Assembly (NCBI GenBank): GCA_963843575.1 | Contig: CAWJKZ010000011.1 | Location: forward strand, 106,341-170,340 | DNA length: 64,000 nucleotides | Direction of reading: 5' to 3' | Source of the DNA: an uncultured Acidobacteriota bacterium | GTDB lineage: Bacteria; Acidobacteriota; UBA6911 | Shown: positions 42,439 through 61,575 of the stretch, piece after piece | Layout of the letters: every line of letters starts with the position of its first letter | Position numbering within the stretch: the first letter of the stretch is position 1 | Position numbers and translations under genes: made by a program | Notes under the pieces: model-generated | The model's database searches: none | The model's input: the letters and a program-made list of their open reading frames with translations, nothing else | What the model was told of the DNA's origin: nothing

Positions 42439-42460
42439 ATGCCGGCTGCCTCAAGGACCC

Positions 42461-42500
42461 GGATAACACGGATGAACGCGGACAGATGACAGATCCGCGT
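42461..42500. repeat. ATCCGCG REP-like hairpin
   Basis: TGAACGCGGA-CAGATGACAGA-TCCGCGTTCA. Confidence 0.6.
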
Positions 42501-42650
42501 TCAAATCCGCCCGGTGGCCTGCTTGCGTCATTTCCATGGCTCCGGCCTGTTGCAGCCGAAAAAGAAGGCCGGGGCCGGAATTTTGTGATAATCCGCGTTT
42601 TTGAGCCGGAAAAGTGCCGGATGGCGCTCTCGATTGGCTGGACCCATGGC

Positions 42651-43917
42651 TCAGGTCCTGACTGCACTGCATGCGGTGTCTGATCGTTGGGGCCCTATGC
42701 AACGGGTGGGATCGATTTTCAGCCAAAGCACTGCGCCCAGGCCGAGGACTGACGCCACGACAATCAGCGGCAGATTGAAACCACCGGAGAGTGCTGCCAG
42801 GTAACCAAATGAGATCGAGAGAAGGAATGAACCTAGCTGCGCGGCCGTATTCATGGAGCCCGAGACTGTTCCCGCGTGCTTTCCGCCGACGTCCAGGCAG
42901 ACCGCCCAGACGGCCGGTTGCTGGAAGGCAATGCCCGCGTAGCTCAATCCCAGCAGCGCCAGGGCCAACAGGTTGTTGGGTGTGAATGCAGCCGCCAACA
43001 TGAAAAGAGCTGCGGCGGACAGACTCGCCATACCCGTCGCACGCCGGCCCCACTTCAATCCCAGCCTCTTCACCGTCAGGTCGCTCGCATATCCTCCGAC
43101 AACCGTTGGCCAGGGCACCGAGCACGAAGGGCACTGTGGAAAGCAGGAGTTCGCTCTCCCCGAAGCCCCGGCCTTTGGCCAGATAAGTCGGAAGCCAGGA
43201 GATGAAGAAGTACATGCCATAGCAGTAGGTTAGTGCCAGTGTCATGAGCGCCCAGAGATTTCCATCCCGGAACAAGCCCCCCCATGGCAGCCGATCTCCA
43301 TGCGGCATCGGGGCGATGCCGATCTCGTCCAGTTCCTGCCTCGTGATGGCAGGCTTGTCTCCGGGATTGTCCCGATACCAGAGATACCATACCGCGCACC
43401 ATCCCATGCCAATCAAGCCGAAGAGGAAAAATGAGGTTCGCCAGCCGTAACGCATCTGGATCGGGACGACCAGCAGGGGGGAAAGGGCGGCTCCCGCTTG
43501 GCTCGCCATCCAGACAATACCAAAGGCGCCGCCGCGCTCTGCCTGGGGAAACCAGCGTGAGATGCTCGTAGCGGTGGTGGGATAGGCTCCTGCCTCGCCC
43601 ATGCCGAAACAGAAGCGGGTCAGGAGAAGGGAGTAGTAGTTCGAAACCGTCCCTGTGAGGCAGGTGAAGGCCGACCACCAGCAAACAATTCGCGTCAGCA
43701 CTCGCCGGGCGCCGATCCGATCTCCCAGCGAACCACTCGGAATCTCAAATGCCCCATAGGCGATTGCGAATACGCCGACCACCCAACCCCAGGCCTGCAG
43801 ACTGATGTTCAATTCCTCCTGCATTCGAGGACCTGCGACTGAGATGCAGACCCGATCGAGGTAGGTGATCGCGGAAAGCATCGAAAGGAGCACAAGGACG
43901 CGATGCCGCAATTTCAT
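42651..43917 (-). CDS. MFS transporter (ACS/anion-cation symporter-like), frameshifted
   Basis: MFS TM pattern, D-R-x-G-R-R-like DRIGARRVL. N-terminal 265 aa in the 43917 frame; the C-terminal half (VVGGYASDLTVKRLGLKWGRR...) continues in another frame (ORF 42651-43220). The break is near 43080-43130. Confidence 0.7.
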
Positions 43918-44005
43918 GTGGCGATGATAGATTCAACGGGTTGCGCAAGTGAAGAGGATTCACCCCTCGCTGTACGGTATACAATATTGCGTGCTGGAGT
44001 GTGGC

Positions 44006-45880
44006 ATGACAAATCCCCTTCCTATCCGGCCCGGCGGCAGTTTCATTGCCTTTGACAAGATTGAGATCAATGGTTCGATCCCCGAGCGCTTCGAACGACA
44101 GGTGCAGGTTTATTCCGGGAGACTCGCGATCCAGTTCGGGAATCATGCGCTGACATACGCGGACTTGAATGAGGCCGCTAACCGGATAGCACAAGCCCTC
44201 CTGTACCTATCCTCGCGGGAGCGGGAGACCATCGCGTTGCTGATTGAGCAGGGGGGTCTACTCATAGCCGCGATCCTGGGAATCCTCAAGGCGGGCAGGA
44301 TCTACGTCCCACTGGATCCGCAGCACCCCCGATCACGACTCGAATATATGCTCTCCGATGCCGAGCCAACCTGGATTTTGACGCACGACACCCATCTGGC
44401 ATTGGCCGACGGATTGGCCCCGGAGGGTTGTAGAGTGCTCAATGTCGAGCGGCTCGACGCATCGGGAATTGCCCGAAATCCTTCCCCTCAAGCCGGCCCG
44501 GATTCTCTCGCCTGCCTCTATTACACATCGGGATCCACCGGCCGGCCCAAAGGCGTCGTTGACAGCCACCGGAATGTCCTTCACAACATCATGCGATACA
44601 CGAACGGGTTGTCTTTTTCCCCGGAGGACAGGTTTTCGCTCATTCAATCCTGCGGTTTCAGTGGTTGTGTCTCGACCATGTTCGGCGCACTGCTCAATGG
44701 GGCCTCGGTCTTTCCTTACGACCTGCAGAAAGCCGGATCCGCCGGGCTCAGCGATTGGGCGCGGCAAAGCGGAATAACGATCTATCACTCGGTCCCGGCC
44801 CTGTTCCGTGAGCTGGCGTGCGGCACGAGCCAGTTTCCCAGTGTTCGACTTATCCGCCTTGAAGGTGACCAGGCCTCGCGCAAGGACGTTGAGCTGTATC
44901 GCAGGCATTTCAGTCCGGAGTGTCTGCTTGTCAATGGGCTGGGTACCACCGAGACCGGAATTGTCCGCCGCTTTGTTATCGACCACCGGACGACGGTGCC
45001 GGAGGGGCCTCTGCCGGTGGGATATGCCGTTGATGACATGATTGTCCTCGTTTTGGATGAAGAGGGCCGCCCGCTGGTGGACTGTGAAATAGGGGAAATT
45101 GCCGTCCAGAGCGAATATCTTGCCTCGGGCTATTGGCGCCGACCGGATCTGACTGCGGCATGTTTCCGGCGAGATCCAGAAAATTCACGCGCGCGCATCT
45201 ATCGGACGGGTGACCTGGGTCGCATGCGTTCGGATGGCTGCCTCGAGCACCTCGGTCGCAAGGACTTCCACGGAAAAATAAGGGGACAATGGGTTGAAAT
45301 CGAGGCAGTCGAATCCGCGCTGCTCGACATGGGCGCCTTTAAGGACATAGCGGTTGTCACACGTCAGGACCCGGCCGAAGAAACGCGCCTCGTGGCTTAC
45401 CTCGTGCCTGCCACCGATTTGCCCCCGACGGTGAGCGCCCTGCGGCGGGTTCTCGAACAGAAGCTACCCAGGCAGTCGATTCCCTCTTCCTACGTCTTGC
45501 TCGATGCCCTGCCGTTGAACGAACACCGGAAGCTGGACCGGAGCGCCCTTCCTCCGCCCGAGAGGACTCGGCCGTGCCTGAGCCAGCCATATGAAGCGCC
45601 TCACACTCCCCTGGAGCAGGTCGTTGCGGACATTTGGGTTGAGGTACTGCAACTGGACCGGGTGGGCATTCATGACAGTTTCTTTGACTTGGGCGGGGAT
45701 TCACTGACGGCGGGACGAGTGCTGTCGCGGGTGCGCCTTTCGTTTTCTGTCGAATTGAGCCTGCGCCAGTTTTTCGATGCCCCGACCGTCCATCAAATGG
45801 CACTCGAGATTCAGGAAGTTCTTGTTGCGCCCGCCATCGTGCCACGGGCGCAAGGACCCCAAGATACCCCACCAAGTTGA
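44006..45880 (+). CDS. Non-ribosomal peptide synthetase-type adenylation-thiolation (A-T) didomain protein
   Basis: A-domain cores LTYADLNEAANRIA, YTSGSTGRPKGV, GLGTTETG, YRTGDLGR, GRKDFHGKIRG; PCP core FFDLGGDSLTAGR. Confidence 0.8.
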   Translation: MTNPLPIRPGGSFIAFDKIEINGSIPERFERQVQVYSGRLAIQFGNHALTYADLNEAANRIAQALLYLSSRERETIALLIEQGGLLIAAILGILKAGRIYVPLDPQHPRSRLEYMLSDAEPTWILTHDTHLALADGLAPEGCRVLNVERLDASGIARNPSPQAGPDSLACLYYTSGSTGRPKGVVDSHRNVLHNIMRYTNGLSFSPEDRFSLIQSCGFSGCVSTMFGALLNGASVFPYDLQKAGSAGLSDWARQSGITIYHSVPALFRELACGTSQFPSVRLIRLEGDQASRKDVELYRRHFSPECLLVNGLGTTETGIVRRFVIDHRTTVPEGPLPVGYAVDDMIVLVLDEEGRPLVDCEIGEIAVQSEYLASGYWRRPDLTAACFRRDPENSRARIYRTGDLGRMRSDGCLEHLGRKDFHGKIRGQWVEIEAVESALLDMGAFKDIAVVTRQDPAEETRLVAYLVPATDLPPTVSALRRVLEQKLPRQSIPSSYVLLDALPLNEHRKLDRSALPPPERTRPCLSQPYEAPHTPLEQVVADIWVEVLQLDRVGIHDSFFDLGGDSLTAGRVLSRVRLSFSVELSLRQFFDAPTVHQMALEIQEVLVAPAIVPRAQGPQDTPPS

Positions 45881-46073
45881 ACCGCGGCGGCGGCACAAGG
45901 GCCGCCAGCCAGGCCACGAGCGTCCACAGCCGGTTGAGGAAGTATGGGAAGTCTGCCGCCAGACCCCCGAAGGACCGGGGAGCTGCTCATGAGAGAGGCA
46001 ACATCCACCGTGACCTGAAACCTGCCAACCTGTGCCTGTTCTGAGTTCTCTCCCGAGCTGTTGCCGGCTGCTT

Positions 46074-47336
46074 TCAAATCGTGCGCGCCAGACGTCGAAT
46101 GACTTCGAGACAGGCCCGCGAAGCGTGGTAGGGGCCTCGCCAGGGACCGGCCTTTGTGCCGTCGATTTTTCCCTCGGGATCTATTGCCGCGTACCATTCA
46201 CCGCACTCACGGTCCACGAAGTCATCGAGAATGAACTGTGCCTCGTGCTCGAACGCCTGCCAATATTTCAGCCGCCCCGTCAACTGGTAGGCGTTTAGAG
46301 TTCCGACAAGAGCCTCGGCCTGTTGCCACCATTCTTTGCGCTTCCTGTCGGCGGGGCCTGACGCCGGCCCTTCCAGGAAGAGTCCGCCGCGCTGGTTGTC
46401 AAAGCCGTCGCGCAGCGCGTGATCCACCAACGCCAGGCAGGTTCGCTCGACCCTGGAATCCCGGCCACGCCCGACAAGCGCCGCGGCTTCAGGGACGAGC
46501 CAGCTCATCTCCATGTCGAGACCGTACACACACCGGATCGAATCGCCGTCTCGGTCGGCGGGCTGCCAATCGTCCGTGAAGTACAACCGGGCGTAGCCCT
46601 GCTCCAAGTCCACAACCCTTTCCACGAAGATATCCACCAATTCCTCAACGCGGGCGCGAACGTCGGCTTCCCCGGTCACATCGTAAAGCGTGGCCAACGC
46701 CTCAAGGAGGCCGAGGTGCCAATCCGATGACTTTCGGCCGTGGGAGGCAACCAGGACCGGGTGAACCTCCTCGTCCGGCGCGACACATGACGAGGCGGTG
46801 GTTCCTGAATCGCGTTGGTAGTCCCGAATCGGCTGCCAGTCCTCGGTGAAGGCGACGTGGTAGCCCCCGTACACGCCATCGTGGGCGCGGCGGTCCATGA
46901 CCTCAAACAGGTCCAGCGCTTCCTGGCGGGCCTGCGCGTCGTGGAACGCAAGCGCATACTCGGCCAGTCCCTCGAGCACATAGGACATCGGATTCAGAAG
47001 CTTCGTGCCGTCGAGCAGCCGACCTTGGCGGTCAACCAACCAGCAGTAGCCGCCCCGCTTCGCGTCCCACATCTTGGCGCGCAGGAACTTCAGGAGGTGC
47101 GTGGCCGCTTCCGCGTAAATGGGCTCGGGGTAGCGCCGGTAGACTTCGGCGAACGTCCACAATAGTCGCCCCTGCTGCGCCACGGATTTGGTACCGGGAG
47201 GAACCGGGTTGCCTTGTCGGTCGAGCCAGCCCATGGCGCCGCCGTATTGACGGTCGATGCCGTGGTCAATCCAGAATTGCAGGACGCCGTGCAAGAGATT
47301 GTCGCGAAATTCCACCATCCAGTCGCGCTTCGGCAT
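46074..47336 (-). CDS. N-acyl-D-glucosamine 2-epimerase (AGE) family protein (cellobiose-2-epimerase-like), cytoplasmic
   Basis: MPKRDWMVEFRDNLLHGVLQFW... AGE-type (alpha/alpha)6 barrel; no signal peptide. Confidence 0.8.
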   Translation of the reverse strand: MPKRDWMVEFRDNLLHGVLQFWIDHGIDRQYGGAMGWLDRQGNPVPPGTKSVAQQGRLLWTFAEVYRRYPEPIYAEAATHLLKFLRAKMWDAKRGGYCWLVDRQGRLLDGTKLLNPMSYVLEGLAEYALAFHDAQARQEALDLFEVMDRRAHDGVYGGYHVAFTEDWQPIRDYQRDSGTTASSCVAPDEEVHPVLVASHGRKSSDWHLGLLEALATLYDVTGEADVRARVEELVDIFVERVVDLEQGYARLYFTDDWQPADRDGDSIRCVYGLDMEMSWLVPEAAALVGRGRDSRVERTCLALVDHALRDGFDNQRGGLFLEGPASGPADRKRKEWWQQAEALVGTLNAYQLTGRLKYWQAFEHEAQFILDDFVDRECGEWYAAIDPEGKIDGTKAGPWRGPYHASRACLEVIRRLARTI

Positions 47337-47387
47337 ATGCCCTCGTGACTTGTGCCGGCAATTGTACCACTCGCGTGAATCCGTCAA

Positions 47388-47666
47388 GCAGAACGCGGAT
47401 CTTCGCGGATTTTACGGATTCACGCGGATCGGCCGCGCCCGGCATTCCTCCCCGAGGGCCGGCGCTTCGCGCCGAGGCATCAAAGCCCGGCTCCCGCAGG
47501 AAAGCGCGCGGTTGGAAGGATGCCGCTTCGATTCAAGGTCCACGTTTTCCTGCGGGAGCCGGGCTTTGATGCGTGCCAAAGGCAGCCCTCGGGGAGGAAT
47601 GCCGGGCGCGGCCTGCCACCAGGCAGCAATCCGCGTGTATCCGCGTAGATCTGCGTCCTGGAAACG
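47388..47666. repeat. MITE-like palindromic element with REP-type ends
   Basis: Internal inverted repeat: left arm 47431-47503 and right arm 47545-47613 share two perfect blocks (29 bp GGCCGCGCCCGGCATTCCTCCCCGAGGGC; 27 bp CATCAAAGCCCGGCTCCCGCAGGAAA) in inverted orientation. The arms are flanked by CGCGGATC-rich ends, CAGAACGCGGATCTTCGCGGATTTTACGGATTCACGCGGATC and ATCCGCGTGTATCCGCGTAGATCTGCGTCCTGGAAACG. Confidence 0.75.
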
Positions 47667-47717
47667 TTAGCGTGTTTCTGAACACGAGTACTTAGTGATG
47701 GTGCCGTGTCAGCGGTT

Positions 47718-47752
47718 GACAGTAAACCAGCCGGGCCTTAGGATACAGCCCA
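47718..47752 (+). promoter_or_regulatory. Candidate sigma70-type promoter (TTGACA-17-TAGGAT) ahead of a ~430-nt leader
   Basis: GCGGTTGACAGTAAACCAGCCGGGCCTTAGGATACAG, ~430 nt upstream of the sulfotransferase start; no convincing ORF in between. Confidence 0.3.
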
Positions 47753-48177
47753 GTACCACGTGTGCCGCAATTTCGCATGCGCCGGGTCCTGGAGGATGCC
47801 CCTTCAGGAGGAATCCACGGTTGGTCGGGCCGCCATCCGAAGGATCATAGAGTGCCATAAGGGGTCGGTTGCACGACATCGAATACCGGCGCCGGGCAGA
47901 TGCTCGAAAATGGTTTCTTTGGCTGGCTCGCCAGGCAGGTTCGCGGCGCGGTGCGATGTAACGAGATTTCCGTTTCGCTTCTCTCCACCCCAACCTCATA
48001 TCCCCTGAACGCTGCAGAGCGATCTCTCGCAGCTACTGGAGCTGCATGACGTATGCGGGACTGCGAGCTGAGAGACGATGACACCATCGTCTTTGGGCAA
48101 GTGCCCGAAGGTATCTGCGCACCTCGTCCCCGCCAAGTAAGGGCGGCAGGCGAAGTTACTCCGGGTTCATTAAGAAC

Positions 48178-49419
48178 ATGAGCGAACGAGAAGCGTCCTG
48201 TGAAACGGCCCAGGGAAAAATCGTGAAGCCCTTGTCCCCGACTCCGCGGCCTATCTTTATCATTGGTTCACCCCGGTCGGGAACCAGCATTCTCACATGG
48301 TGCCTGGGGCAGCACCCTGACATCCTACCTTTGGAGGAGGGCAACTGGCTGGACAAGTTTGCATTGGAGTTGGGATCGACCTACGAGTGTGGCACCAGGC
48401 GAGGGGAGCGGGCCCAACTCGCAGCGCTGGGAATCAGCCGCGATGAGTTTTACGAATCGTTCGGTTCCGCCATCAATGCTCTCATCCTGAGTTGCCGTGA
48501 CCGATTGTATGAACGTGCGCATGCAAGCGCCGTGCTCGACCCGACCCAGATACACCCTTCATTCAAGCTGACGCGAGAGACAGGCGAACCGAAACTCCGA
48601 TGGACGGATGGGACGCCCGAATATTCCCTTTGCGTCTACGGGCTGCTCAAGCTTTTTCCAGAAGCCCGGTTCATTCACGTCGTTCGAGACGTCAAATCCG
48701 TGGTCAGATCGTTGGTGAGGTTTTCGTCGCAGGGGCAATCCATAGTCCGTAACGAGCGTGAAGCTTACGAATACTGGCTCAGGACGACCCGTGCGTGTGT
48801 AACCGCCGAGCAAGCACTTGGCCCAGGCCGGATTCGTCGGGTTCGCCACGTTGACCTGATGAAAGATCCGGTGCGTACGTTTACAGGTCTCCTCGACTTT
48901 CTGGGCGAGCCATTCTGCCCGCGGTGTCTCGAACCGCTGGAAGTTCGCATCAACAGCTCGAAGGTTCCGCCGGAGTTCGATAGCCGTGACGGAACATCTC
49001 CGACAACTGTCCTGGAGGAGGCCGAGATTCTCAGCGACCGGCTCCAGCGAATGGAACAACCGTCTCTTCCAGATTTGCGTAAGATGGCGGAGGTGGAAGA
49101 CGCGTTCTGGGATCGGGTGCGGTACGTCGGAAGTCTGGATGCCGAACTCGACAGGAGTATCGCGAACTACGTTGCCCTTGAGGAAGCCCTAGCCGACCGG
49201 ACCGAGTGGGCACAGAAACTGGTCAGGGAAATAGCTGACCGTGACGAAACGATCCGCCGGTACCAGCATGAATTAGGGAAACGCACCATCAGATACGGCC
49301 TGTGGCGGTTTGGCCAGCTTCTGTCACGAAGACTTCGGCTCAGGCCCGATCCCGAGGGGGGTTCTCCGAACCATCCCTCCCGCCAATATTCGGAGAGTAG
49401 AGACACCCGGCCGCACTGA
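48178..49419 (+). CDS. Sulfotransferase family protein with C-terminal coiled-coil extension
   Basis: PAPS-binding P-loop IFIIGSPRSGTSIL (5'-PSB) and an RxxxxxS-type 3'-PB region (ARFIHVVRDVKSVVRS). C-terminal ~150 aa are predicted helical. Confidence 0.75.
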   Translation: MSEREASCETAQGKIVKPLSPTPRPIFIIGSPRSGTSILTWCLGQHPDILPLEEGNWLDKFALELGSTYECGTRRGERAQLAALGISRDEFYESFGSAINALILSCRDRLYERAHASAVLDPTQIHPSFKLTRETGEPKLRWTDGTPEYSLCVYGLLKLFPEARFIHVVRDVKSVVRSLVRFSSQGQSIVRNEREAYEYWLRTTRACVTAEQALGPGRIRRVRHVDLMKDPVRTFTGLLDFLGEPFCPRCLEPLEVRINSSKVPPEFDSRDGTSPTTVLEEAEILSDRLQRMEQPSLPDLRKMAEVEDAFWDRVRYVGSLDAELDRSIANYVALEEALADRTEWAQKLVREIADRDETIRRYQHELGKRTIRYGLWRFGQLLSRRLRLRPDPEGGSPNHPSRQYSESRDTRPH

Positions 49420-49685
49420 TGCTCTGAATGCCCGGGGACGAATCTGCACAATTACAGCTGCAAACTACGTCCGGGCCGAAGAGGCTGTCCAACGGTTGAT
49501 TGTGGAGTGCGGCGGCTCGACGGCTCGACGCCGCTTTGGTGGTGGCGCCTCGGCGCCACCAAAGGCCGAGGTCGCAGGGTCGCCTCTCGCAATTCGGCGT
49601 GGCGCCGAGGCGCCGGGCATTCCTGCCGTAGGACGAGTGAAAGCGACGCCGAGGCGCCGCACTCCAGATTCGTACGAGGTGATCC

Positions 49686-51437
49686 GTGCAGAAGACCCTT
49701 GTTACACCACACGGCGGAACGCTCGTCGACCTCTTCGTCTCGAATGAGCGAGCTGCGGATACCGCGAGGGAATCGAAGTGTCTGCCCTCCTGGGTCCTGA
49801 CGCCGCGGCAGCGGTGCGACCTCGAGTTGCTCATGAGCGGAGGGTTCTCGCCGCTGAAAGGATTCCTCAACCGGGAGGATTACCATTCGGTGCTCGAGAC
49901 GATGCGCCTGGCGGATGGAACGCTCTGGCCGGTCCCTGTAGTGCTCGATATGCCAGAAGAGCACGCCTCGAGGCTCAGCAAGGGGGATCGGCTCGCCCTG
50001 CGCGACGACGAAGGCGTGATGCTCGGTATCCTCCACGTCGAGGAAGTGTGGCGCGCGGATCGCCAATTGGAGGCGGAGAAAGTCTACGGCACGATAGATC
50101 CAGCCCACCCAGGTGTGCGGCACCTGCTGGAGAGTACGCACCCCGTATACGCGGGCGGCCGCGTCGAGGGGATCCACCCTCCTGCGCACTACGATTTCCG
50201 GACGCTCCGGCGCACGCCCGCCGAGATGCGCAGCGAATTCCAGCGGCTCGGCTGGCGGCGCGTCGTGGCCTTCCAGACGCGGAATCCTCTCCACCGGGCG
50301 CATTTCGAGCTGACATTGAGAGCCGCCAGGGAGTGCAACGCAAACCTCCTTATCCACCCGGTAGTGGGAATGACGAAACCGGGCGACCTCGATCACTACA
50401 CGCGGGTCCGCTGCTACGAGGCGCTGATGCACCGTTATCCCCCGGGGACGGTGATGCTTTCGCTCCTGCCGCTCGCCATGCGGATGGCAGGCCCCCGGGA
50501 GGCAGTCTGGCACGCGATCATCCGCAAGAACTACGGCTGTACCCACTTCATCGTGGGACGCGACCACGCAGGACCCGGCGTCGACGGGGGCGGCAACAGG
50601 TTCTATGGCCACTACGATGCCCAGGAGCTGCTTCGAGCGCACGAAGCGGAGCTCGAGGTGCAGATGGTGCCGTTCCGCTCGATGGTCTACCTTGAAACCG
50701 AGGACCGGTACGTCTCCGAGGACGAAGTGCCCGAGGGCGCGCATGCCTCCAACATGTCGGGGACGGACCTCAAGCGCCGCCTCGCCGAGGGGCGCGACAT
50801 CCCGGCATGGTTCACGTTCCCGGAGGTGGCGGCGGAACTCCAGAAGAGCCATCCTCCCCGCAGCCGCAGTGGGTTTACCGTGTTCTTCACCGGGCTGTCA
50901 GGCGCGGGCAAATCGACAATAGCTAACGTGCTCCTCGTGAAGTTGCTGGAAATGGGCGGCCGCCCGGTGACGCTCCTGGACGGCGACATCGTCAGGAAGA
51001 ATCTCTCCTCCGAGCTCGGGTTCTCAAAGGAGCACCGCGACATCAACATCCGCCGGGTCGGATTCGTCGCGTCCGAGATCACGAAGAACGGCGGCATAGC
51101 AATCTGTGCCCCAATTGCCCCCTACGACAGGACGCGGCGCGACGTGAGGGCCGCCATCGAGCCGCTCGGCTGCTTCGTCCTCGTTTACGTGTCGACCCCG
51201 ATCGAGGTATGTGAGCAGCGCGATCGCAAGGGGCTCTATGCGAAGGCGCACGCGGGCCTCATCCCCGAGTTCACGGGGGTCTCGGATCCGTATGAGGCGC
51301 CGGCTGATGCGGACGTCGTCATCGACACGACCGACCTCACTCCCGAACAGGCTGCCGAGGAAGTGCTGCTGCACCTCAGGAATATAGGGTGTATAGGCAC
51401 AATCACCCCGGCGGATCCGCGCGCATCCGCGTCCTGA
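49686..51437 (+). CDS. Bifunctional sulfate adenylyltransferase / adenylylsulfate kinase (PAPS synthase)
   Basis: ATP-sulfurylase motifs QTRNPLHRAH and GRDHAGPG in the N-terminal two-thirds; APS-kinase P-loop FTGLSGAGKSTIA and LDGDIVRKNL in the C-terminal third. GTG start. Confidence 0.85.
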   Translation: MQKTLVTPHGGTLVDLFVSNERAADTARESKCLPSWVLTPRQRCDLELLMSGGFSPLKGFLNREDYHSVLETMRLADGTLWPVPVVLDMPEEHASRLSKGDRLALRDDEGVMLGILHVEEVWRADRQLEAEKVYGTIDPAHPGVRHLLESTHPVYAGGRVEGIHPPAHYDFRTLRRTPAEMRSEFQRLGWRRVVAFQTRNPLHRAHFELTLRAARECNANLLIHPVVGMTKPGDLDHYTRVRCYEALMHRYPPGTVMLSLLPLAMRMAGPREAVWHAIIRKNYGCTHFIVGRDHAGPGVDGGGNRFYGHYDAQELLRAHEAELEVQMVPFRSMVYLETEDRYVSEDEVPEGAHASNMSGTDLKRRLAEGRDIPAWFTFPEVAAELQKSHPPRSRSGFTVFFTGLSGAGKSTIANVLLVKLLEMGGRPVTLLDGDIVRKNLSSELGFSKEHRDINIRRVGFVASEITKNGGIAICAPIAPYDRTRRDVRAAIEPLGCFVLVYVSTPIEVCEQRDRKGLYAKAHAGLIPEFTGVSDPYEAPADADVVIDTTDLTPEQAAEEVLLHLRNIGCIGTITPADPRASAS

Positions 51438-51445
51438 AAAACAGG
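51408..51445. repeat. ATCCGCG REP-like element overlapping the PAPS synthase 3' end
   Basis: GCGGATCCGCGCGCATCCGCGTCCTGAAAAACAGG; the stop codon of the gene lies inside it. Confidence 0.6.
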
Positions 51446-51475
51446 TTGTACTTGCGCTGCAATAGCGCGCAGGAA

Positions 51476-52891
51476 TTATTTCCTTCTCAGGAACCGGAAG
51501 GATAGAACGGCCGTGCTCGTCACGTTACGATCCCCGAATCTGGCCGGGACGAAAGTGCTTTGGCGCGCCGCGCTGATCGCGATGCTTGAGAGGTGGCGGA
51601 GCAGGGCATTTCCCGAAGCCAATGATTCGGCGCTCGTGACCGCGCCAAAGGCGTTAATCTTCACCCTGACATTGATCTGAACGGAATCAACGGTGAACGG
51701 ATATAAGCTGTAGTAGAGGTCCGGCTGAATCAGACGGATCGGGCGCGGTGGAACCCCATCAAAGCCGGATACCTCTCCCCCCTGTGCCGGGCTAGGCCGG
51801 TCTCGCCAGCTCTCTTCGGTGAAGCCAACTGTCATTCCCTCCACGCCCCTTTTCGGACGTTTCATGCGCAACGGTGCGGCGGGTGAGGCGGCGCTGGTTC
51901 GTGAATTATCCCTCTGGAATTTGTCTTTGGCGCGCAGCAGGTTCTCTTTGCTAGTAGTCATGCGATCCGGCTTGGAGAGTGCTGCCGTGGGGGCGAGTGG
52001 CTGTGAACCCATGGCCGGATCAGATCGTGGCACCAATTCGCTAATCTCTTCGGTGAGTGCGAGCGGCCTCGGTTTTTGTTGGACAGAACTCTTCTGCGAA
52101 GATTGCGGACGGGATTGCCTGGTCGAGATCAGGCGCCAGCAAGGGACTGCCGCGATGCAGAGTGCAAGTGCCCAGACCAGGGGCGAACGGCAGGCAGTTT
52201 GAATAGCCGCGCGTGGCATCTGTCTGAATCGGTTCTTTCCGGCTGCCGGACGGGAAGGGTCCTGAAGCATTCGAGGGCCAAGTTTTTCGGTGTCCAGCAC
52301 GTCTGGATCGGAGGTTTGCTCCGGTTCGGACTGTTCAACGTTATCTGGAGGCTGCAATGCATGTTCCGGGGAGTTAATGTAATCTCGGGATGCGGTTTCG
52401 GCGCCCGGACGGTTGGGAAATTGCACTTTTGTTTCGCTGGCTAGCAGTAGCTGTCGATCCATTTCCCCCCATACAAAGACAGATCCGGTATTGCTCCCCT
52501 GAGATGTGCCTATCAAGAGAAGCATCGAGGCAGACTCGGGCAGGAATTCCCTCATGACCCGCAGATCGCGCTCGTCCGGCACCGGTTCTGCGCTGGAGGC
52601 GAGGCGATAATAGCCCAGAATTTCGAGTTGACCGGCTCGCCTTTGCAGCGAGGACGCGAACGGTTTCCAAAATTGATCTCTATCCCGCACGAGCTTTCGG
52701 CCGAGTTGCGGAGCGTAGCTGAATACGATCGCAGCTCCCCCGTTACTCTGGCCCAGCAAGAGACCGCTTGGTTCCGACGGTCCCGGCGGGATCAATGCGC
52801 GCGAAATCTCCTTCTGCAAGGCCTCAATGAGGGCGAGATGCATGAACACCGTGAATTCCCGACCGGCGAAATGCAATTCGCAATACTGCAT
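51476..52891 (-). CDS. Membrane protein with TonB-C-like C-terminal domain (hypothetical)
   Basis: Single TM VWALALCIAAVPCW; Pro/Ser/Gln-rich linker; C-terminus PIRLIQPDLYYSLYPF...SFRF resembles TonB/energy-transducer C-terminal domains; N-terminal ~130-aa globular domain of unknown type. Confidence 0.5.
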   Translation of the reverse strand: MQYCELHFAGREFTVFMHLALIEALQKEISRALIPPGPSEPSGLLLGQSNGGAAIVFSYAPQLGRKLVRDRDQFWKPFASSLQRRAGQLEILGYYRLASSAEPVPDERDLRVMREFLPESASMLLLIGTSQGSNTGSVFVWGEMDRQLLLASETKVQFPNRPGAETASRDYINSPEHALQPPDNVEQSEPEQTSDPDVLDTEKLGPRMLQDPSRPAAGKNRFRQMPRAAIQTACRSPLVWALALCIAAVPCWRLISTRQSRPQSSQKSSVQQKPRPLALTEEISELVPRSDPAMGSQPLAPTAALSKPDRMTTSKENLLRAKDKFQRDNSRTSAASPAAPLRMKRPKRGVEGMTVGFTEESWRDRPSPAQGGEVSGFDGVPPRPIRLIQPDLYYSLYPFTVDSVQINVRVKINAFGAVTSAESLASGNALLRHLSSIAISAARQSTFVPARFGDRNVTSTAVLSFRFLRRK

Positions 52892-53758: not shown

Positions 53759-54527
53759 GTTCACCCGAGACCTTCGGTCGAACCGGCGGGCCCGCTCTTT
53801 GAGCCCGAGTCCGAACCGGTGCTGCAGGTTCCGCGATCAGCCGGCCCTGCTCCAGGGCACTGTCGCCGTCGGAGGTGCGTAACGAGTGGCCCAGCACGAG
53901 AGCCTCGGCCTCGTTCATCTGCCAGACCGCCGCGCACACCGTGTCTCGGCCCAGCGCAGATATCCCCCTAAATGTCTCGAATCGACTTTCAGAGCCGATT
54001 CGCCGGCCTTCCCTCTGGTCGCGGGGGGCCGCGCAAGGCTATTCCGGTCTTGAACAGCATCTGAATCGATATGGCAACCTCTACGGCAAGGTCAGATTGC
54101 GCCCCTTGTTTTCAACAAGTTAGCGCGGCACCATTTTCTCACTTCTGGGACAGGTTACGAGGGTATGACATTGCAGTGAATCGTTTTCCGCAGAACAATT
54201 TCCTATTGCTCCGGGAACCCGACGGGTGTATCGTGCCGGGTTATAAGTATTGAGCTTTAGCGCCGAAACCAGAGCGCAACTCGCGCAAGACCTCGCAGCA
54301 CTCTCTTTCCGACGGAACACTTGGCAAAAACACACCTACGGTAGGTGTACAAGTGAATTCCACAAGGGCATTCTGTACGTCGACAACCATCAAAAGCATC
54401 GCACCTCACCTGTCCTGGTGTGCTGACCCAGGAACTCCACTGTGCCAAGCCGGCGATCGCGGCTGTGAAAAGTCGTGGAGCTCCTCTAGGAAATCCGAAA
54501 CCATCAGATGCGCTAGGGAGAAAACAC

Positions 54528-54857
54528 ATGGCGCACAACCACGGACATGAAGGTAATGAATATCAGATCAGAATTGTTCATAGGGACGGAACTGAGGAAC
54601 TGAGCGGATGGATGAACAGCACAGAGCAGGTTGCTCAGGCGATGGCTGCGGCCCAAAGGCTACAAGGTAGAGCTTACTGGCTTCTGGAACGAAACGTCCT
54701 GTGTCCCAACTGCTTAGACAGGGGACTCGGTCTGGAATATCCCATTATGGGTATCCCGTCTCCGCGATGCATGCCACACGACTCCCGTTATCTGCTGGTA
54801 TCGGGGTCGAGGAACCGGTCCGCGTTGGGCTTTTCAACGTTATGGCACACACTGTAA
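54528..54857 (+). CDS. Hypothetical protein (His-rich N-terminus, CxxC pair)
   Basis: RBS AGGGAG; MAHNHGHEGNEYQIRIVHRDGTEEL...CPNC...; lies in a lower-GC stretch; no known domain. Confidence 0.4.
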   Translation: MAHNHGHEGNEYQIRIVHRDGTEELSGWMNSTEQVAQAMAAAQRLQGRAYWLLERNVLCPNCLDRGLGLEYPIMGIPSPRCMPHDSRYLLVSGSRNRSALGFSTLWHTL

Positions 54858-55073
54858 GCTAGCGCACGCACGGAATCGGCATTCAGCTGCCCTGGCGGGG
54901 AGTCCGGCGCCGGCGTGATAGTAGCGGTCGCCCGGTCAGAACATCTCCGGCGCTTTCGTACCGTCCGATACTTGGGTGGAATTCAACAAACTGGGTATCC
55001 CGTTGACTCAGGTGCCCACTATTTCTTGTCTCCACGCACTTTGGACACCGATAGACCAGTTCCTGAAGCAGTG

Positions 55074-55688
55074 TCAGGCTCCAGGGAGGATTCGCAGAAT
55101 GAGGAGTGTGATGTCGTCGTAGCGCGCGGCGGTGCCGACGCCGGCGACGTCGGCCACAACCAACAGCAGGTGCTCCGTCGCGGGCTGTCCCGGCGGCGCC
55201 GGCCGGAGAAAGGCGTCATAGTAGTCGCCGGAAACGGTATTGGCCGGCAGAGTCACGAAGGCGATGTCGGTGCCCGTCACCGGCGGAGGTGCTTTTGGCA
55301 CCAGCCACCCCTGTATTTCGCGCGCAATTTCCAGGTCCCGCTTCATCGTCACACGGTCGGCGAGCTCGAGACCCAGGACCAAAAGCACGAGCAACGCTCC
55401 GAGGATCATAGGCCCCTGGTCCTGTTCCTGCCTCCCGCCTGCCAGCAACAGAAGTCCCAGGATCAGGCAGACGCGTCGCGCAGCGGACAATTCCCAGAAC
55501 AAGGCCGCTGCAATTCGCGCAAACTGCTTCCACCGCGGCATGCGTCGGAAAGTTTCGGACTCCATTTTCCTGGAATACAGCCCATAGCTGGAACTTGCTT
55601 CGGACCGGAGCTGGCGCCAGAGGTCCTGCAGCGCTATGCCGTCCGTCAGCCGCTTCCATAAGCTCGGGCCTCTTCGCAATAGGCCCAT
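55074..55688 (-). pseudogene. PP2C-type (SpoIIE/RsbU) phosphatase remnant with internal deletion
   Basis: N-terminal TM segment, then GDYYD...LLLVVADVAGVG running directly into the domain-terminal YDDITLLILRI; ~130 aa of the catalytic domain are missing. Confidence 0.45.
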
Positions 55689-55839
55689 CGAGATCTCCTC
55701 CCGCTATGCTCCGTGTTAGGGCAGCTTACCACGCATGATGAGCTGGCGAGCGGATGCTCCTGCCGCCGCCTTCGCCCCAATGAAATCACAGTTCGGGAGT
55801 CTCCGTGGCGAGATTCCACATCTGGGAGGAGAGAGCCGC

Positions 55840-56102
55840 ATGACTAACAAATCCAAAACATCCGCTGCACACTCGAAGTGTGACCTCAGTCGCCTGTCGG
55901 ATCTGTTTAGAAAAACAAAACTTTAGTCGGTTGTTGCTTCATCGAAGTAGAGGTTGAGGCGGTGGGCGCGTCCGGATGGCGGACAACCTCATCGGCGAAC
56001 TGGCTCGGGCCGCCCTCAGGTGAAGCTCACGGTTATATCCCAACAGGGCAAGGAAGCAATCGTCGCCATTCTGGACGCCGATATTTCCCTCTTCCGTTCG
56101 TA
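55840..56102 (+). pseudogene. Crp/Fnr-family regulator remnant (fragments)
   Basis: MTNKSKTSAAHSKCDLSRLSDLFRKTKL* followed in another frame by ...LTVISQQGKEAIVAILDADISLFRS*; weak cNMP-binding-domain resemblance. Confidence 0.3.
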
Positions 56103-56235
56103 AAGAGCGTATAGTCATCTCAACTGTCTAGCGCCTTTATATCTTCTACCGAAGTGAGGCATTGACGCTACCCAGCTCAGGAGGTAGCCGGATAATGCCC
56201 GCCAAAGCGCAGGTTTACGAGGCCACCCCGCAAAT

Positions 56236-56402
56236 CAAAAATCGAATCTTAGTCGCGCATCTGGGGATGACGTCTTCATCCCGCAATAAAGGCCACCGGT
56301 TACATGTCGCTCAGTGAAGGAGACACGGTTGAATTCACCGTGGCGAGAGACCCGAAAGGTCTCCAGGCGCAAGACGTGGTGAAGATTCCAAGGATGACCT
56401 AA
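56236..56402 (+). pseudogene. Cold-shock protein (CspA family) 3' remnant
   Basis: ...GDDVFIP then frame change to ...AIKATGYMSLSEGDTVEFTVARDPKGLQAQDVVKI matches Csp C-terminal strands; no N-terminal KGxVKWFN segment upstream. Confidence 0.4.
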
Positions 56403-56426
56403 CTGAATGCTGAAAGGGAGGGGAAG

Positions 56427-56843
56427 ATGGCAGATACGGTTCGCAAAGTCGATTACTTCTACATTGAAACCCAGGATAAACCAGGGGAGGGGGCCAAGGT
56501 GCTCGCAGCGCTCCGGGATGCGGGCGTAAACCTTATTGGCTTTACTGCGTTTCCACGAGGGCGTTGGAGGGCTCAGATTGATTTTATCCCGGAGGATGCG
56601 GTTGCGTTTAAGACCGCTGCGAGGAAGGCTGGACTCAAGCTCAGCGCCAAGAAGACGGGCTTCTTGATCCAGGGGGAAGACCGACCGGGTGCGTTTGCCG
56701 ACATACTGCGTAAGCTCGCTGCGGTCAACGTCAATGTTACGGCGAGCGACGCCGCATGTGCCGGGGGAGGTCGCTACGGAGCGATGCTCTGGGTAAAACC
56801 CACTGACGTGCGGAAGGCGGCGAAGGCTCTTGGCGCTACATAG
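56427..56843 (+). CDS. ACT-domain-like small protein (hypothetical)
   Basis: RBS AGGGAGGGGAAG; 138 aa MADTVRKVDYFYIETQDKPGEGAKVLAALRDAGVNLIGF... with two beta-alpha-beta-beta-alpha-beta-like halves. Confidence 0.55.
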   Translation: MADTVRKVDYFYIETQDKPGEGAKVLAALRDAGVNLIGFTAFPRGRWRAQIDFIPEDAVAFKTAARKAGLKLSAKKTGFLIQGEDRPGAFADILRKLAAVNVNVTASDAACAGGGRYGAMLWVKPTDVRKAAKALGAT

Positions 56844-57105
56844 CGCAGGGCGAAGCCCGACCCCAGGGCGGCGTGGCGAGGTGCCGGGAGAGGCCCCCAC
56901 CGGCCGCCCTTTCTTGGTCTAGCAGCAGTGGTGGTGATGCCCGTCGGGGTGGGCACATCCTCAGGCAGGGGCCACGTAGCGCTCGGGCTCCTTGTCGAAT
57001 TCCTTCTTGCAGCTCGGGGAGCAGAACACATAGGTTTGCCCGGCGTGCGTACTCCTGTGCGGGGAGTTGTCGTCACGGTCATGCCGCAAACAAGGTCCTT
57101 GGCCC

Positions 57106-57776
57106 GCGTGCGGCTCTTTCGGCTGAGTTGTTGGAAATTCGCCCGTTTTTCTTTTGTGCCAGAACAGAATTGACCGAACGGTGTGTCCCCGGCGCGAAAG
57201 CGGTCGGCCTGGCGCTGCTGTATTCGGACCTCCGTATCGGCCCGAGTCAGGCTACGGCACAAATTCCGATTCTCGCTCCGGCGGGAATGCCAGCTACCGG
57301 CCCTTGTTCTCATGCGTGTGCACGGCCCTTTCGGGGTGGTCGGCGGCATCCTCGAGACCGTCCACGACCCCGGCCTCGTATGCCTGGTCCGTCTCGGCGA
57401 GTTCTCCAACGCTCTCCTCGTCAGCGTCCGCAATTTGCGAAAGCCCCTGGGCATCACCCGATTGCCCCGCGCTGTCAGAACTTGCTTCCTCCGGGTCCCT
57501 CCCAAGCTCATCGATCTGAGCCTCGTCATTCCGCAGTTTACGTGTCACCATGGACACCTCCCCAGAGCGCCAGAATCGAGTGCCGAATAGTGGCTGCTCA
57601 TTGGATGAATTTCGCCAACACTTGCATGGGGCTTCTTGGTCGCGGCGATGCTCTTCAATTTCGCGCGGTCCGTCACCATCGCCCGACGGAACCGGGTATC
57701 ACGCTGTACGTCGACGAGATCGGCCCTTCAGTGCTCTGGCACTTCGCGCCAGGCTCTTCGCGTCCCTGCTTGCGGA
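57106..57776. repeat. 671-bp direct repeat, copy 1
   Basis: Near-identical to 62426-63096 (a handful of substitutions and two 1-nt indels by eye); both copies yield identical ORF-track peptides. Confidence 0.9.
57294..57557 (-). CDS. Small acidic protein encoded inside the direct repeat (87 aa)
   Basis: GTG start; MSMVTRKLRNDEAQIDELGRDPEEASSDSAGQSGDAQGLSQIADADEESVGELAETDQAYEAGVVDGLEDAADHPERAVHTHENKGR. This is the only frame in the repeat with non-biased composition. Confidence 0.4.
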   Translation of the reverse strand: MSMVTRKLRNDEAQIDELGRDPEEASSDSAGQSGDAQGLSQIADADEESVGELAETDQAYEAGVVDGLEDAADHPERAVHTHENKGR

Positions 57777-58549
57777 CCCATCGCACACCTCCCGTCGGTG
57801 TGCATTGCCAAGTATTCCGTTGGAAGAGAGTGCTGCGGGCGGTAATTGGGTGAGTTGCGCTCTAATTTTCGGCGATGACATTCAACGCTCACGGCAAGCT
57901 ACACCCGTCGGATTCCCCGATCTATGGGAAATTGTCCACGGGAAATTGTTCTGCAGATCCGCAGACGATAATTCACTGCGATACCATGAGCTTATAACCC
58001 GTGGTTGCCGCTCCTGAAGTCGGATGAGCAATTCTGAACACGCAGTTGAGCAAGATTAAACTGACGCGTGAATTCCCCCGGAGTACAAAGAGTCAGGCCA
58101 CAAGCGAGAATCTGGCAGGAGGCCAGGAGCCAGAGGGGCGTAATAGGAGGCTTTCAGGCTGAAAAGAAGGGGTGCGAGCGGCATCACGGCCTGTTGCGGT
58201 TGAGGGTGGGAAATTGATTGGCTGAAAGCATCGAGGGTTTCGATGAAACCCTCAGCTTGTTTCGCCTGTCCACCGCGGTTGTCCTCTCATCGCTGGGGCT
58301 TCGTGGAAGGGGGGGGCGTCTTTCCTGAGCCCTATTGGAAACAGCAAAGGCGATGGCCAGCCTCAGCGGAGGTACTCCAGCGGCAGGCCATCGCTCGTTT
58401 GGTGCTTGCACGACTACGCGCGGTGGGGAGGTGCAGTAGCAATCTGGAACAAGGCGCCTATCGCGTGGTTTGATGAATCGCAGAATGCCTTAACCCTCAA
58501 CAGTGCATACACGAGATCGAAGCCAGTCCTGAGCTGAAAGGAGATTCCC

Positions 58550-58717
58550 ATGTTACTGATCTTGTTGATTATTGTCCTGCTGCTCGCGTTCGGCGGCGGC
58601 GGTGGGTATTACGGATATAAGAGATGGGGGACGGGCGGAGGCGTCGGGATCGTCGGGCTTGTCCTGATCATTCTGGTGCTCTTGTACCTGTTCGGTGGAT
58701 TGCCTCTGCCCCGTTGA
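58550..58717 (+). CDS. Small hydrophobic membrane protein (DUF3309-like, 55 aa)
   Basis: RBS AAAGGAGA; MLLILLIIVLLLAFGGGGGYYGYKRWGTGGGVGIVGLVLIILVLLYLFGGLPLPR. Confidence 0.55.
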   Translation: MLLILLIIVLLLAFGGGGGYYGYKRWGTGGGVGIVGLVLIILVLLYLFGGLPLPR

Positions 58718-58811
58718 AGTTCAGAGGGGGTTATGGGCTTGAACGGCCCAAGGCACCGAGGAATAGGGTCATCTTTGTGGACTAAATGCTATGCCTCATC
58801 AAAGGAGAAAT

Positions 58812-59360
58812 ATGAAAACGCTGAAACTGTGCTTAACCTTGCTCGCGCTACTCCTAGTCGGGATCCTCGTAAGTTGCTCAGGGACGGCCACGCGATCCCC
58901 CGACATTTCTGACAGCATCCGCAAGTCGCTCGATCAAGCCGGCCTCAAGGATGTCTCCGTAAGTCAGGATCGCGACAAGGGTGTAGTGACCCTTGGCGGA
59001 CACGTCGCAGCTGACGCGGACAAGTCACAAGCCGAATCCATTGCGAAATCAATCGCAACTGGGCAGGTTGTCGCGAACCAGATTGCCGTGCTTCCTCCCG
59101 GTGGTGAGAGCGATGCAAAAGCGGTGAACTCTGCTCTCGACAAGGGTGTCGAGAACAACCTGGACGCTGCTCTCATCCAAAACGGGCTTCAGGAGAGTGT
59201 CAAATATGATGTTAAAAATGGTGTGGTCACGCTAACTGGAGACGTCAACTCACAATCCAAGCGTGCGCAGGCCGAGAAGATCGCTGCTTCAGTTCCGAAT
59301 GTTCAGCAGGTGGTGAACAACCTGCAGATTAAGAACCAGAAGGCCACCACGTCGAAATAA
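58812..59360 (+). CDS. BON-domain lipoprotein (OsmY-like)
   Basis: RBS AAAGGAGAAATATG; lipobox LVSCSG; two BON-like modules (IRKSLDQAGLKDVSVSQDRDKGVVTLGGHV...; LIQNGLQESVKYDVKNGVVTLTGDV...). Confidence 0.8.
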   Translation: MKTLKLCLTLLALLLVGILVSCSGTATRSPDISDSIRKSLDQAGLKDVSVSQDRDKGVVTLGGHVAADADKSQAESIAKSIATGQVVANQIAVLPPGGESDAKAVNSALDKGVENNLDAALIQNGLQESVKYDVKNGVVTLTGDVNSQSKRAQAEKIAASVPNVQQVVNNLQIKNQKATTSK

Positions 59361-61054: not shown

Positions 61055-61102
61055 GGATTCTCGCGGGCACAGCTCGGGACAGAACTGGGGTATTTTGAGG
61101 CA
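61055..61102 (+). repeat. Conserved ~48-bp intergenic motif, copy 1
   Basis: GGATTCTCGCGGGCACAGCTCGGGACAGAACTGGGGTATTTTGAGGCAT matches 63495-63543 with ~6 substitutions. Confidence 0.6.
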
Positions 61103-61575
61103 TTTGGAGTGGGGTTCTGGTAGCTGTTTATGCCCGAAGAACCTTGACGGACGGCAATACCGGCGGCTGCCCGATTCAGCGCCGCGATTGGCGAGCGCGC
61201 CGCCGCCCAGATGATGGTGTTCAGTGACCGTTCGACTGCATGGGTATACCGTTGTGTGCCGCCAAAACCCGCTGCTGTCGACAGGGAAAGTGTGCAAAAA
61301 TTCCATTCCCGGGTACATCGATCTGGCGCATAATCCCGTTCGTGACTGGTCTTAAGCTCGGCTCAGCGGCGGCAGACGGGGCGGAATTGACGTAATACCC
61401 CAGATCGGAAGCAGGATCCATACCGGAACCTCCGACAATGCAGCTTGTTTTTCCTGTCGGGGGGCTCCTCCGTTCCGATGTAGGTGAGCGGAGTGGCCTT
61501 CGGGGTGGCAGGCGGGGTGGCGCTCGTGCTATGGCGAGAGGGGCGCCGGTAAGCGGCTATTCAAGGAGGGGCACC

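Follow-up and report, generated by a model that had tools for sequence, protein, structure and literature searches.

Positions 106,341 to 170,340 of contig CAWJKZ010000011.1, from an uncultured Acidobacteriota bacterium (lineage UBA6911), were analysed; this whole stretch of 64,000 nt is referred to here as the window. It contains a sulfotransferase gene (ST) followed on the same strand by a gene for a fused sulfate adenylyltransferase/adenosine 5′-phosphosulfate (APS) kinase, Sat/CysC, a synthase of 3′-phosphoadenosine 5′-phosphosulfate (PAPS). The original prediction had combined these two with a nonribosomal peptide synthetase (NRPS)-type adenylation-thiolation (A-T) didomain, an AGE-family epimerase, an MFS transporter and a more distant A-T-thioesterase (A-T-TE) protein into one locus for a sulfated small molecule. 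All of the genes that it named were recovered at their positions by open reading frame (ORF) listing and by Pfam and NCBIfam scans. The most informative element, which it did not contain, is an nhaA-I riboswitch in the leader of ST. We tentatively read ST and Sat/CysC as a sulfation module that is induced by alkali cations through this RNA.

The nhaA-I RNA (Rfam RF03057; Li+-I / Na+-II riboswitch aptamer class) spans positions 47784-47838 on the plus strand. It was detected by the Rfam covariance model with 48.3 bits, compared with a gathering score of 37 (E = 1.8e-06 for the 64-kb window, both strands, 4227 families), and was the sole Rfam match in the window. The match is full length (model positions 1-55 of 55). 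All conserved nucleotides, GGGU, AGG and UGGUCGGGCCGCCA, match the model, the conserved GGUCGGGCCGCC loop of the class is carried, and the P1 helix is retained by altered base pairs. Members of the class are validated Li+-activated ON switches, with Na+-responsive variants, and have been reported from Proteobacteria only (PMC9646797). They mostly precede nhaA (PMC9646797; PMC5737381), and the associations beyond nhaA comprise otsA (16), glycosyl transferase (5), trkA (4) and mscS (3) genes (PMC9646797, Supplementary Table I). In the window, ST is the next plus-strand gene after the aptamer, its ATG lying 340 nt downstream. Unlike the listed associations, ST and Sat/CysC are not cation transporter or osmotic-stress genes, which bears on the regulon and not on the identity of the RNA.

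A sigma-70-like promoter candidate, TTGACA-17-TAGGAT (47716-47744, plus strand, 10/12 consensus matches), is located about 40 nt upstream of the aptamer, and no second such site was found in 45800-51700. The candidate is not significant alone because shuffled sequences give a mean of 0.8 sites; its position fits a transcript that would begin just ahead of the aptamer. The 340-nt leader from the aptamer to the ST start codon (47839-48177, plus strand) contains an in-frame stop 99 nt upstream of the ATG. The start codon call is sound because the N-terminus of ST lines up with those of its homologues. The sole small ORF in the leader (47900-48049, 49 aa) was considered as a direct riboswitch target and rejected, since its GC content at third codon positions (GC3) is 0.52 versus 0.64-0.89 for the genes of the window.

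ST (48178-49419, plus strand) encodes a protein of 413 aa, of which residues 25-246 match Sulfotransfer_3 (PF13469) with E = 3.6e-31 and 109.5 bits (Pfam cut-off 27). The catalytic core (about residues 25-290) is followed by a coiled-coil helix of 88 residues (300-387) and then by a basic amphipathic tail. The 5′-phosphosulfate-binding (5′-PSB) loop GSPRSGTS (residues 30-37) and the 3′-phosphate-binding (3′-PB) segment RDVKSVVRS (R170...S178) are invariant or nearly so across 22 homologues, and E54 is invariant across the family in the homologue alignment. In the AlphaFold2 model, with a predicted local distance difference test (pLDDT) score of 80.2, residues 300-387 form one unbroken helix (block pLDDT about 85-95), and 68% of its a/d positions are hydrophobic in the best heptad register. 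The C-terminal coiled-coil extension that the original prediction had pointed out is thus real, and it is common to the whole ST family. The tail motif RT(I/L)RNGLWRLG is kept in the subclade of the window's ST; in other clades the tail is replaced by hydrophobic, transmembrane-like segments.

The ST core was compared with solved structures. The nearest were the tyrosylprotein sulfotransferases TPST1/2, the sulfotransferase domains of CurM/OLS and mycobacterial Stf1/Stf9, with identities of 18-22%. Foldseek gave a probability of 1.00 for TPST, for the CurM and OLS sulfotransferases and for Stf1/Stf9. TPST1/2 were the best matches (profile E = 3e-15; Foldseek E = 7.5e-10 to 1e-07), the catalytic Glu region included, and the CurM/OLS and Stf1/Stf9 domains scored level with them. 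The 5′-PSB and 3′-PB elements of ST align onto the TPST P-loop and 3′-PB region in the profile comparison. A match to NoeE was confined to the 5′-PSB loop (E = 6.8e-05, NCBIfam scan), the Stf0-type family of trehalose sulfotransferases was not matched in the Pfam scan, and tblastn of ST against plasmids returned only polyketide synthase (PKS) sulfotransferase domains at 25-28%. By fold and PAPS-binding motifs, ST is a PAPS-dependent sulfotransferase, its activity being predicted; by sequence comparison it belongs to a distinct, uncharacterised branch of Sulfotransfer_3. The original prediction had posed the choice between carbohydrate and small-molecule sulfotransferases. A placement was obtained, next to TPST, CurM/OLS and Stf1/Stf9, and it leaves the acceptor undecided.

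Sat/CysC (49686-51437, plus strand) is the fused protein of 583 aa that had been described after ST. It scores 923.5 bits on NCBIfam PRK05537 (cut-off 669), contains PUA_2, ATP-sulfurylase and APS_kinase domains, and carries the motif sets of both activities (QTRNPLHRAH, GRDHAG, GLSGAGKST and LDGD). Its GC3 is 0.81, versus 0.64 for ST. Homologues of 70-80% identity are spread over several phyla, and the named top matches are from Acidobacteria, Gemmatimonadetes and Actinobacteria. Downstream of the closest homologue with retrievable context (79%, locus L166) there are a CysQ-like phosphatase and then a sulfatase, not cysH/IJ. This gene row (10001-16719 of that locus) is headed by Sat/CysC and contains the CysQ-like protein of the inositol-monophosphatase family, the sulfatase, phosphodiesterases and a small Sulfotransfer_3-like ORF; it looks like a context of PAPS use and of recycling of adenosine 3′,5′-bisphosphate (PAP or pAp), not of assimilation. 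None of cysH, cysD/N, cysI/J and cysQ was present among the window ORFs scanned, and neither there nor at the two homologous loci P0003 and L166 did cysH, cysI/J or sir lie beside Sat/CysC.

The neighbourhoods of ST homologues were surveyed at 159 loci (1.9 Mb in total), which were searched with the proteins of the window. The family is very large, with 1405 matches at E <= 0.001 among the candidates scored, mostly at 41-50% identity. For close relatives, a metagenome scan with the single ST protein gave no match, and an alignment-based scan gave homologues of 40-52% identity only. None of the 159 loci had relatives of the A-T protein, the AGE epimerase, the MFS transporter, a 471-aa ORF or a cupin of the window near ST. 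In P0003 (58% ST), the relative whose gene content is best preserved, a Sat/CysC gene (P0244), 75% identical to that of the window, lies directly upstream of ST with no gap, that is, in the reversed order compared with the window. This contig has SpoIIE-like and PRC-barrel genes in common with the window and contains no A-T, AGE or MFS gene within 10 kb; the pair adjoins a gene for a ClC-CBS channel. A closer ST homologue (P0002, 63%) is flanked by two Na_H_Exchanger genes and Usp genes, and its vicinity includes mechanosensitive (MS) channels, ClC, Na_Ca_ex and a TreT-like glycosyltransferase (GT), the TreT-like GT and the MS channels being within 8 kb of ST. The two contexts are independent support, of a suggestive kind and drawn from gene order, for a role in ion stress.

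An APS-kinase match was found at five of the 159 loci (Rhodanobacteraceae and relatives), where it corresponds to CysD (519 bits) plus CysN/C (964 bits). These genes are directly downstream of ST in four of the five; in the remaining one (L013) they lie a few kb upstream. In L006, L019, L047 and L089 (Rhodanobacteraceae and related Lysobacterales) the ST, cysD and cysN/cysC fusion genes and a DegT aminotransferase gene stand in a row. Judged by sequence, such rows are an independent coupling of ST with PAPS synthesis through a non-homologous type of ATP sulfurylase. The linkage in P0003 and in the five CysD-CysN/C loci, and the context without cysH/IJ in L166, bear out the proposal that ST and Sat/CysC serve sulfation and not assimilatory reduction.

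In the wider ST family, which is abundant in soil Verrucomicrobiota, Rhodanobacteraceae and Terriglobales, the conserved neighbours are ST paralogues, methyltransferases (MT), GT2, DegT and GDP-mannose dehydratase. Homologues at 41-53% identity occur in glycan clusters with GT2, GT1, GT9, DegT, GDP-mannose dehydratase, RmlD-like and methyltransferase genes; the clusters of P0009 (50%) and P0006 (53%), for example, contain GT1, GT2, GT9, RmlD-like and dTDP-sugar isomerase genes. Moreover, ST homologues adjoin proteins of about 1100 aa with the order ST/MT, coiled coil, GT2, GT1, or make up their N-terminal part as a domain. Proteins of this architecture with 1100-1320 aa were seen upstream of ST homologues in L005, L060, L062, L029 and L047. 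In soil Verrucomicrobiota, Terriglobales and Dyella, the giant ST/MT-GT proteins stand beside tandem arrays of stand-alone STs and methyltransferases, DegT and GDP-mannose dehydratase. By analogy they look like polymerase-terminator systems of the WbbB/WbdD style, with sulfation as the modification. In the source annotations viewed, no member of the ST family was named by function. These contexts suggest, on the level of gene order, that sulfated surface glycans are widespread in soil bacteria.

Upstream of the riboswitch there are three further genes, which we regard as neighbours and not as parts of the module. The stand-alone A-T didomain protein (ORF 43949-45880, plus strand, likely ATG at 44006) contains AMP-binding (1.4e-62), AMP-binding_C (7e-08) and PP-binding (2.8e-13) domains by Pfam and scores 321.3 bits on TIGR01733, slightly over the cut-off of 317.4. 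It belongs to a large and very widespread family at about 50% identity, whose members are stand-alone A-T proteins of about 640 aa or A-T-TE proteins of about 900 aa; one record is labelled Nitrosotalea. Its A4 core reads SFSGxVS where FDxS is expected, and Asp235 is missing; because this Asp binds the alpha-amino group, the substrate is suggested not to be an alpha-amino acid. The neighbours of A-T homologues are HPPD-like and MurJ-like genes or tandem A-T arrays, and no AGE or ST gene was found beside them at the loci whose DNA or gene tables were examined. The AGE-superfamily epimerase/isomerase (46074-47387, minus strand, likely ATG at 47336; GlcNAc_2-epim 5.3e-39) is convergent with the A-T gene and divergent from ST. 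Its best NCBIfam match is cellobiose 2-epimerase at 180 bits, far from the cut-off of 800. The N-terminus has no signal-like segment, which agrees with the cytoplasmic location that had been assigned to it.

The gene for the ACS-type MFS transporter (42451-43917, minus strand; split gene 42651-43917; TIGR00893) is frameshifted as sequenced. A 1-nt frameshift lies near 43100, at the junction of GCCAACGGT and TGTCGGAGGA. The MFS_1 match is limited to residues 12-271 of a 488-aa ORF, and the C-terminal half is in another frame (42651-43220); the spliced protein matches TIGR00893 positions 3-395 of 399. The gene may be a pseudogene or the frameshift an assembly error, and related ENA contigs also have fragmented gene calls. 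Its divergent position relative to the A-T gene is as described before, whereas the exporter role assigned to it is not supported: apart from the frameshift, the best matches are ACS-family importers of acid sugars (D-galactonate-type), not exporters.

The A-T-TE protein at 13.6 kb (13555-16245, plus strand) was likewise present. An A-T-type gene followed by a convergent AGE-superfamily gene occurs twice in the window, at 13555-16245 (plus) with 17182-18531 (minus) and at 44006-45880 (plus) with 46074-47336 (minus); a small zinc-ribbon ORF lies between the A-T-TE and AGE-like genes of the first pair, at 13.5-18.5 kb. A duplicated A-T/AGE module was considered and rejected, since identity is only 24% between the A-T proteins and 23% between the AGE proteins, and no AGE gene stands beside the A-T homologues examined. 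On sequence grounds the double arrangement is probably a coincidence. The scanned ORFs of the window yielded no condensation domain. With their alternating strands, the genes fall into four transcription units: MFS (minus), A-T (plus), AGE (minus) and ST-Sat/CysC (plus). Because the neighbour genes do not recur with ST and sit on alternating-strand units, the ST-PAPS synthase pair is the only functional unit supported by the comparisons at the locus, and A-T, AGE and MFS look like unrelated neighbours. The claim that these three and the A-T-TE protein share one sulfated-conjugate pathway is not supported, given the survey of 159 loci, the other neighbours of A-T homologues, the four units, the frameshifted and importer-like MFS gene and the absence of a condensation domain from the ORFs scanned.

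Palindromic elements are located on both sides of ST. A long nested palindrome (47372-47646), with arms of 29 nt (100% complementary) and 30 nt (97%), lies between the AGE gene and the promoter and aptamer. The spacer between ST and Sat/CysC contains a second nested element (49498-49671, arms of 25 nt and 16 nt). The folding energy of this spacer (49470-49685) is -118.5 kcal/mol (z = -4.3), and the element is not a canonical terminator because a U-tract is absent. The motif GCGCC[C/G]GGCATTCCT occurs three times in the window (0.16 expected), always in one of these two elements. Part of a palindrome arm (GCCCTCGGGGAGGAATGCC) resembles the 3′ strand of P1 and the linker of the aptamer (GCCCCTTCAGGAGGAATCC). 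The elements could be of the repetitive extragenic palindrome (REP) or miniature inverted-repeat transposable element (MITE) kind, or traces of the arrival of an ST cassette.

Some features farther from the locus were also recorded. The stretches 53800-58800 and 60500-64000 have a lower GC content (0.57-0.59) and few long ORFs, which may reflect gene decay or a frameshift-rich assembly. ORF 55074-55688 (minus) has the look of an internally shortened SpoIIE/PP2C phosphatase (GDYYD ... ADVAG ... DDITLL), and a BON-domain (OsmY-like) gene (58791-59360) and a PRC-barrel gene (59535-60443) are situated near the low-GC stretches. ORF 18797-19831 (minus) matches GINT1_N, the N-terminal domain of glucosamine inositolphosphorylceramide transferase 1, at 2.4e-60; the family is named after a plant sphingolipid glycosyltransferase and is unusual in bacteria.

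The reading that we favour, tentatively and at slightly under an even chance, is a two-gene module for sulfation of an envelope glycan or glycolipid, which stands behind the nhaA-I riboswitch and is induced by cation stress. A rise of cytoplasmic Li+ or Na+ would fold the aptamer and switch the downstream reading frame ON, as in characterised members of the class. The ligand and the ON logic, like the control of ST and possibly of Sat/CysC, are what we infer here; Sat/CysC might be expressed by read-through of the highly structured spacer. Sat/CysC would make APS from sulfate and ATP and turn it into PAPS. ST would oligomerise through its 88-residue helix, and its basic amphipathic tail could keep it at the inner side of the membrane. 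It would then move sulfate onto a sugar-based acceptor, most likely a precursor of an envelope glycan or glycolipid, and through this sulfation the cell surface would gain fixed negative charge during cation or osmotic stress. From gene context, the acceptor is probably a membrane-proximal, sugar-based molecule. The more specific claim of direct control over PAPS-dependent sulfation by an alkali-cation (Li+/Na+) riboswitch, a link that we did not find reported, is possible, with the balance somewhat against it.

Several observations weigh against this reading. Neither a canonical intrinsic terminator nor an alternative helix overlapping the ribosome-binding site was found in the 340-nt leader, so that no expression platform was recognised; the majority of the class is thought to work through the adjacent ribosome-binding site (PMC9646797). 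The link of the riboswitch to ST is known from one sequence only: a pattern search found no nhaA-I-like site in 160+ more distant ST-homologue and other fetched loci, and an Rfam scan of L160, L163, L165 and L166 gave no nhaA-I. The associations that PMC9646797 and PMC5737381 name include neither a sulfotransferase gene nor one for sulfate activation, and a literature search on a sulfotransferase-riboswitch link gave nothing relevant. Co-transcription of ST and Sat/CysC is not assured because a very stable palindromic structure sits between them. Given its 70-80% conservation across phyla, Sat/CysC could be the general sulfate-activating enzyme of the cell. As for the acceptor, it is a contextual inference only, because the closest relatives of known structure act on tyrosylprotein and polyketide substrates and are not carbohydrate sulfotransferases; moreover, no glycosyltransferase neighbours occur at the loci of the window's ST subclade.

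This last point keeps a soluble product in play as a serious rival, in which ST, with PAPS from Sat/CysC, makes a sulfated compatible solute (a sulfotrehalose-like sugar sulfate) under salt. The window's subclade without polysaccharide GT neighbours would suit a solute, the nhaA-I class is linked to otsA, the trehalose-6-phosphate synthase gene, in 16 cases, and the TreT-like GT and MS channels of P0002 point in the same direction. In haloalkaliphilic archaea, 2-sulfotrehalose serves as a salt-induced osmolyte; at the time of a 2005 review, the enzymes that make it were still unexplored (PMC1224877). On the other hand, a long coiled coil with a conserved basic amphipathic tail, replaced by transmembrane-like segments in other clades, is unexpected for an enzyme acting on a free solute, the relatives at 50-53% are in lipopolysaccharide- or glycan-type clusters, and there is neither a trehalose-synthesis gene in the window ORFs scanned nor a Stf0-type match. 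We consider the solute improbable overall. A different purpose for the same riboswitch operon, which we hold to be a shade less probable still, is compensation of Li+ poisoning of the PAPS/PAP pathway, the rise in ST and PAPS synthase keeping up a constitutive sulfation flux. Li+ strongly inhibits the phosphatase of pAp, a by-product of sulfur metabolism (PMC1935014), and pAp is described as inhibiting PAPS reductase and sulfotransferases (PMC8268124). The fit of the aptamer to the class consensus at every conserved position agrees with such a role, and there is a parallel with fluoride riboswitches that raise fluoride-inhibited enzymes, an analogy also found in PMC9646797. Yet extra ST activity would yield more pAp and make matters worse unless the phosphatase were raised too, and no cysQ-like gene is present in the operon or among the scanned window ORFs; moreover, the Na+/H+ exchangers, MS channels, Usp and ClC genes near close homologues point to general ion or osmotic stress and not to Li+ in particular.

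It is unlikely, if somewhat less so than either of these, that there is no regulated module at all, Sat/CysC being a housekeeping enzyme, ST a recent insertion between palindromic repeats and nhaA-I an orphan or remnant. The conservation of Sat/CysC across phyla, the lower GC3 of ST (0.64 versus 0.81), the related palindromic elements on both sides of ST, the 340-nt leader without a platform and the riboswitch link from one sequence would all be accounted for in this way. However, ST is linked to PAPS synthesis elsewhere too, with the order of the genes reversed or through an ATP sulfurylase of the non-homologous type; the aptamer has kept every conserved position and scores well over the gathering threshold, and independent ion-transport contexts surround close ST homologues. 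That ST is a protein or peptide tyrosine sulfotransferase of the RaxST or TPST kind is very unlikely. TPST1/2 are its best sequence and fold matches, catalytic Glu region included, but at an identity of just 18-22% and with CurM/OLS and Stf1/Stf9 scoring equally; there are no candidate peptide substrate or secretion genes adjacent to ST, and the family-wide context is glycan biosynthesis. Hardly tenable is the single cluster of the original prediction, in which A-T (and A-T-TE), AGE, ST, Sat/CysC and MFS make and export a sulfated aminoacyl, glyco- or lipo-conjugate. Although the genes lie within 9 kb and a second A-T-type protein has an AGE-like neighbour at 13.5-18.5 kb, relatives of A-T, AGE and MFS are absent from all ST loci surveyed, and the loci of A-T homologues that were examined are without AGE and ST. 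P0003 shares Sat/CysC, ST, SpoIIE and PRC genes with the window, yet has no A-T, AGE or MFS gene within 10 kb. The four transcription units, the broken importer-like MFS gene, the absence of a condensation domain from the scanned ORFs and the low identity of the A-T and AGE pairs (24% and 23%) speak against it as well.

Taken singly, the genes are usual representatives of families already described. Both the ST-PAPS synthase module and the Li+/Na+ riboswitch have precedents; the two papers in which the riboswitch class was defined name no association that combines them. Should the aptamer govern this operon, the regulon of cation riboswitches would reach from ion export and trehalose synthesis to sulfation, and sulfation of an envelope glycan or of a solute would be the response of some soil bacteria to cation stress. 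It would also connect Li+/Na+ sensing in bacteria with the PAPS/pAp pathway, whose sensitivity to lithium is established and which is the classic site of lithium's toxic action. Those who described the Li+ riboswitch, and who drew the fluoride analogy as well, suggested that further associated genes might reveal Li+ targets (PMC9646797), and the operon would be of the kind expected to do so. Induction by salt or LiCl would then offer a simple handle on the products of a very large bacterial ST family. The call of a biosynthetic cluster, plausible but wrong, is corrected as well.

Compared with known Li+-I / Na+-II riboswitches, the window RNA is alike in being full length, with all conserved nucleotides, and in lying 5′ of a same-strand gene, and ion- and osmotic-stress genes are found near ST homologues. 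It differs in that the aptamer precedes an ST and a PAPS synthase, 340 nt away and without a recognisable platform. The class has also been reported from Proteobacteria only, whereas the named best Sat/CysC matches of the window are from Acidobacteria, Gemmatimonadetes and Actinobacteria. With TPST1/2, CurM/OLS and Stf1/Stf9, the window's ST shares the PAPS-dependent fold and the 5′-PSB and 3′-PB motifs; unlike them, it has the coiled-coil extension, and at 18-22% identity the acceptor regions are not confidently alignable.

The coiled coil of WbdD drives trimerisation and acts as a ruler (PMC3482155). Like WbdD-type terminators, the window's ST joins a modifying domain to a long C-terminal coiled coil, and its relatives occur in or beside ST-coiled coil-GT2-GT1 proteins. 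In contrast to WbdD, to which it has no sequence homology, it is predicted to sulfate, not to phosphorylate or methylate, and no GT or ABC-transporter genes are near it. Coupling of an ST to its own genes for PAPS synthesis is familiar from nodH with nodPQ in Sinorhizobium and from RaxST with RaxPQ in Xanthomonas. The window's ST is likewise coupled genetically to sulfate activation, as are the ST-CysD-CysN/C loci of the Rhodanobacteraceae type. However, its ATP sulfurylase is of the homo-oligomeric Sat type fused to CysC and not CysD/CysN, and the pair lies under a putative cation riboswitch instead of responding to host signals.

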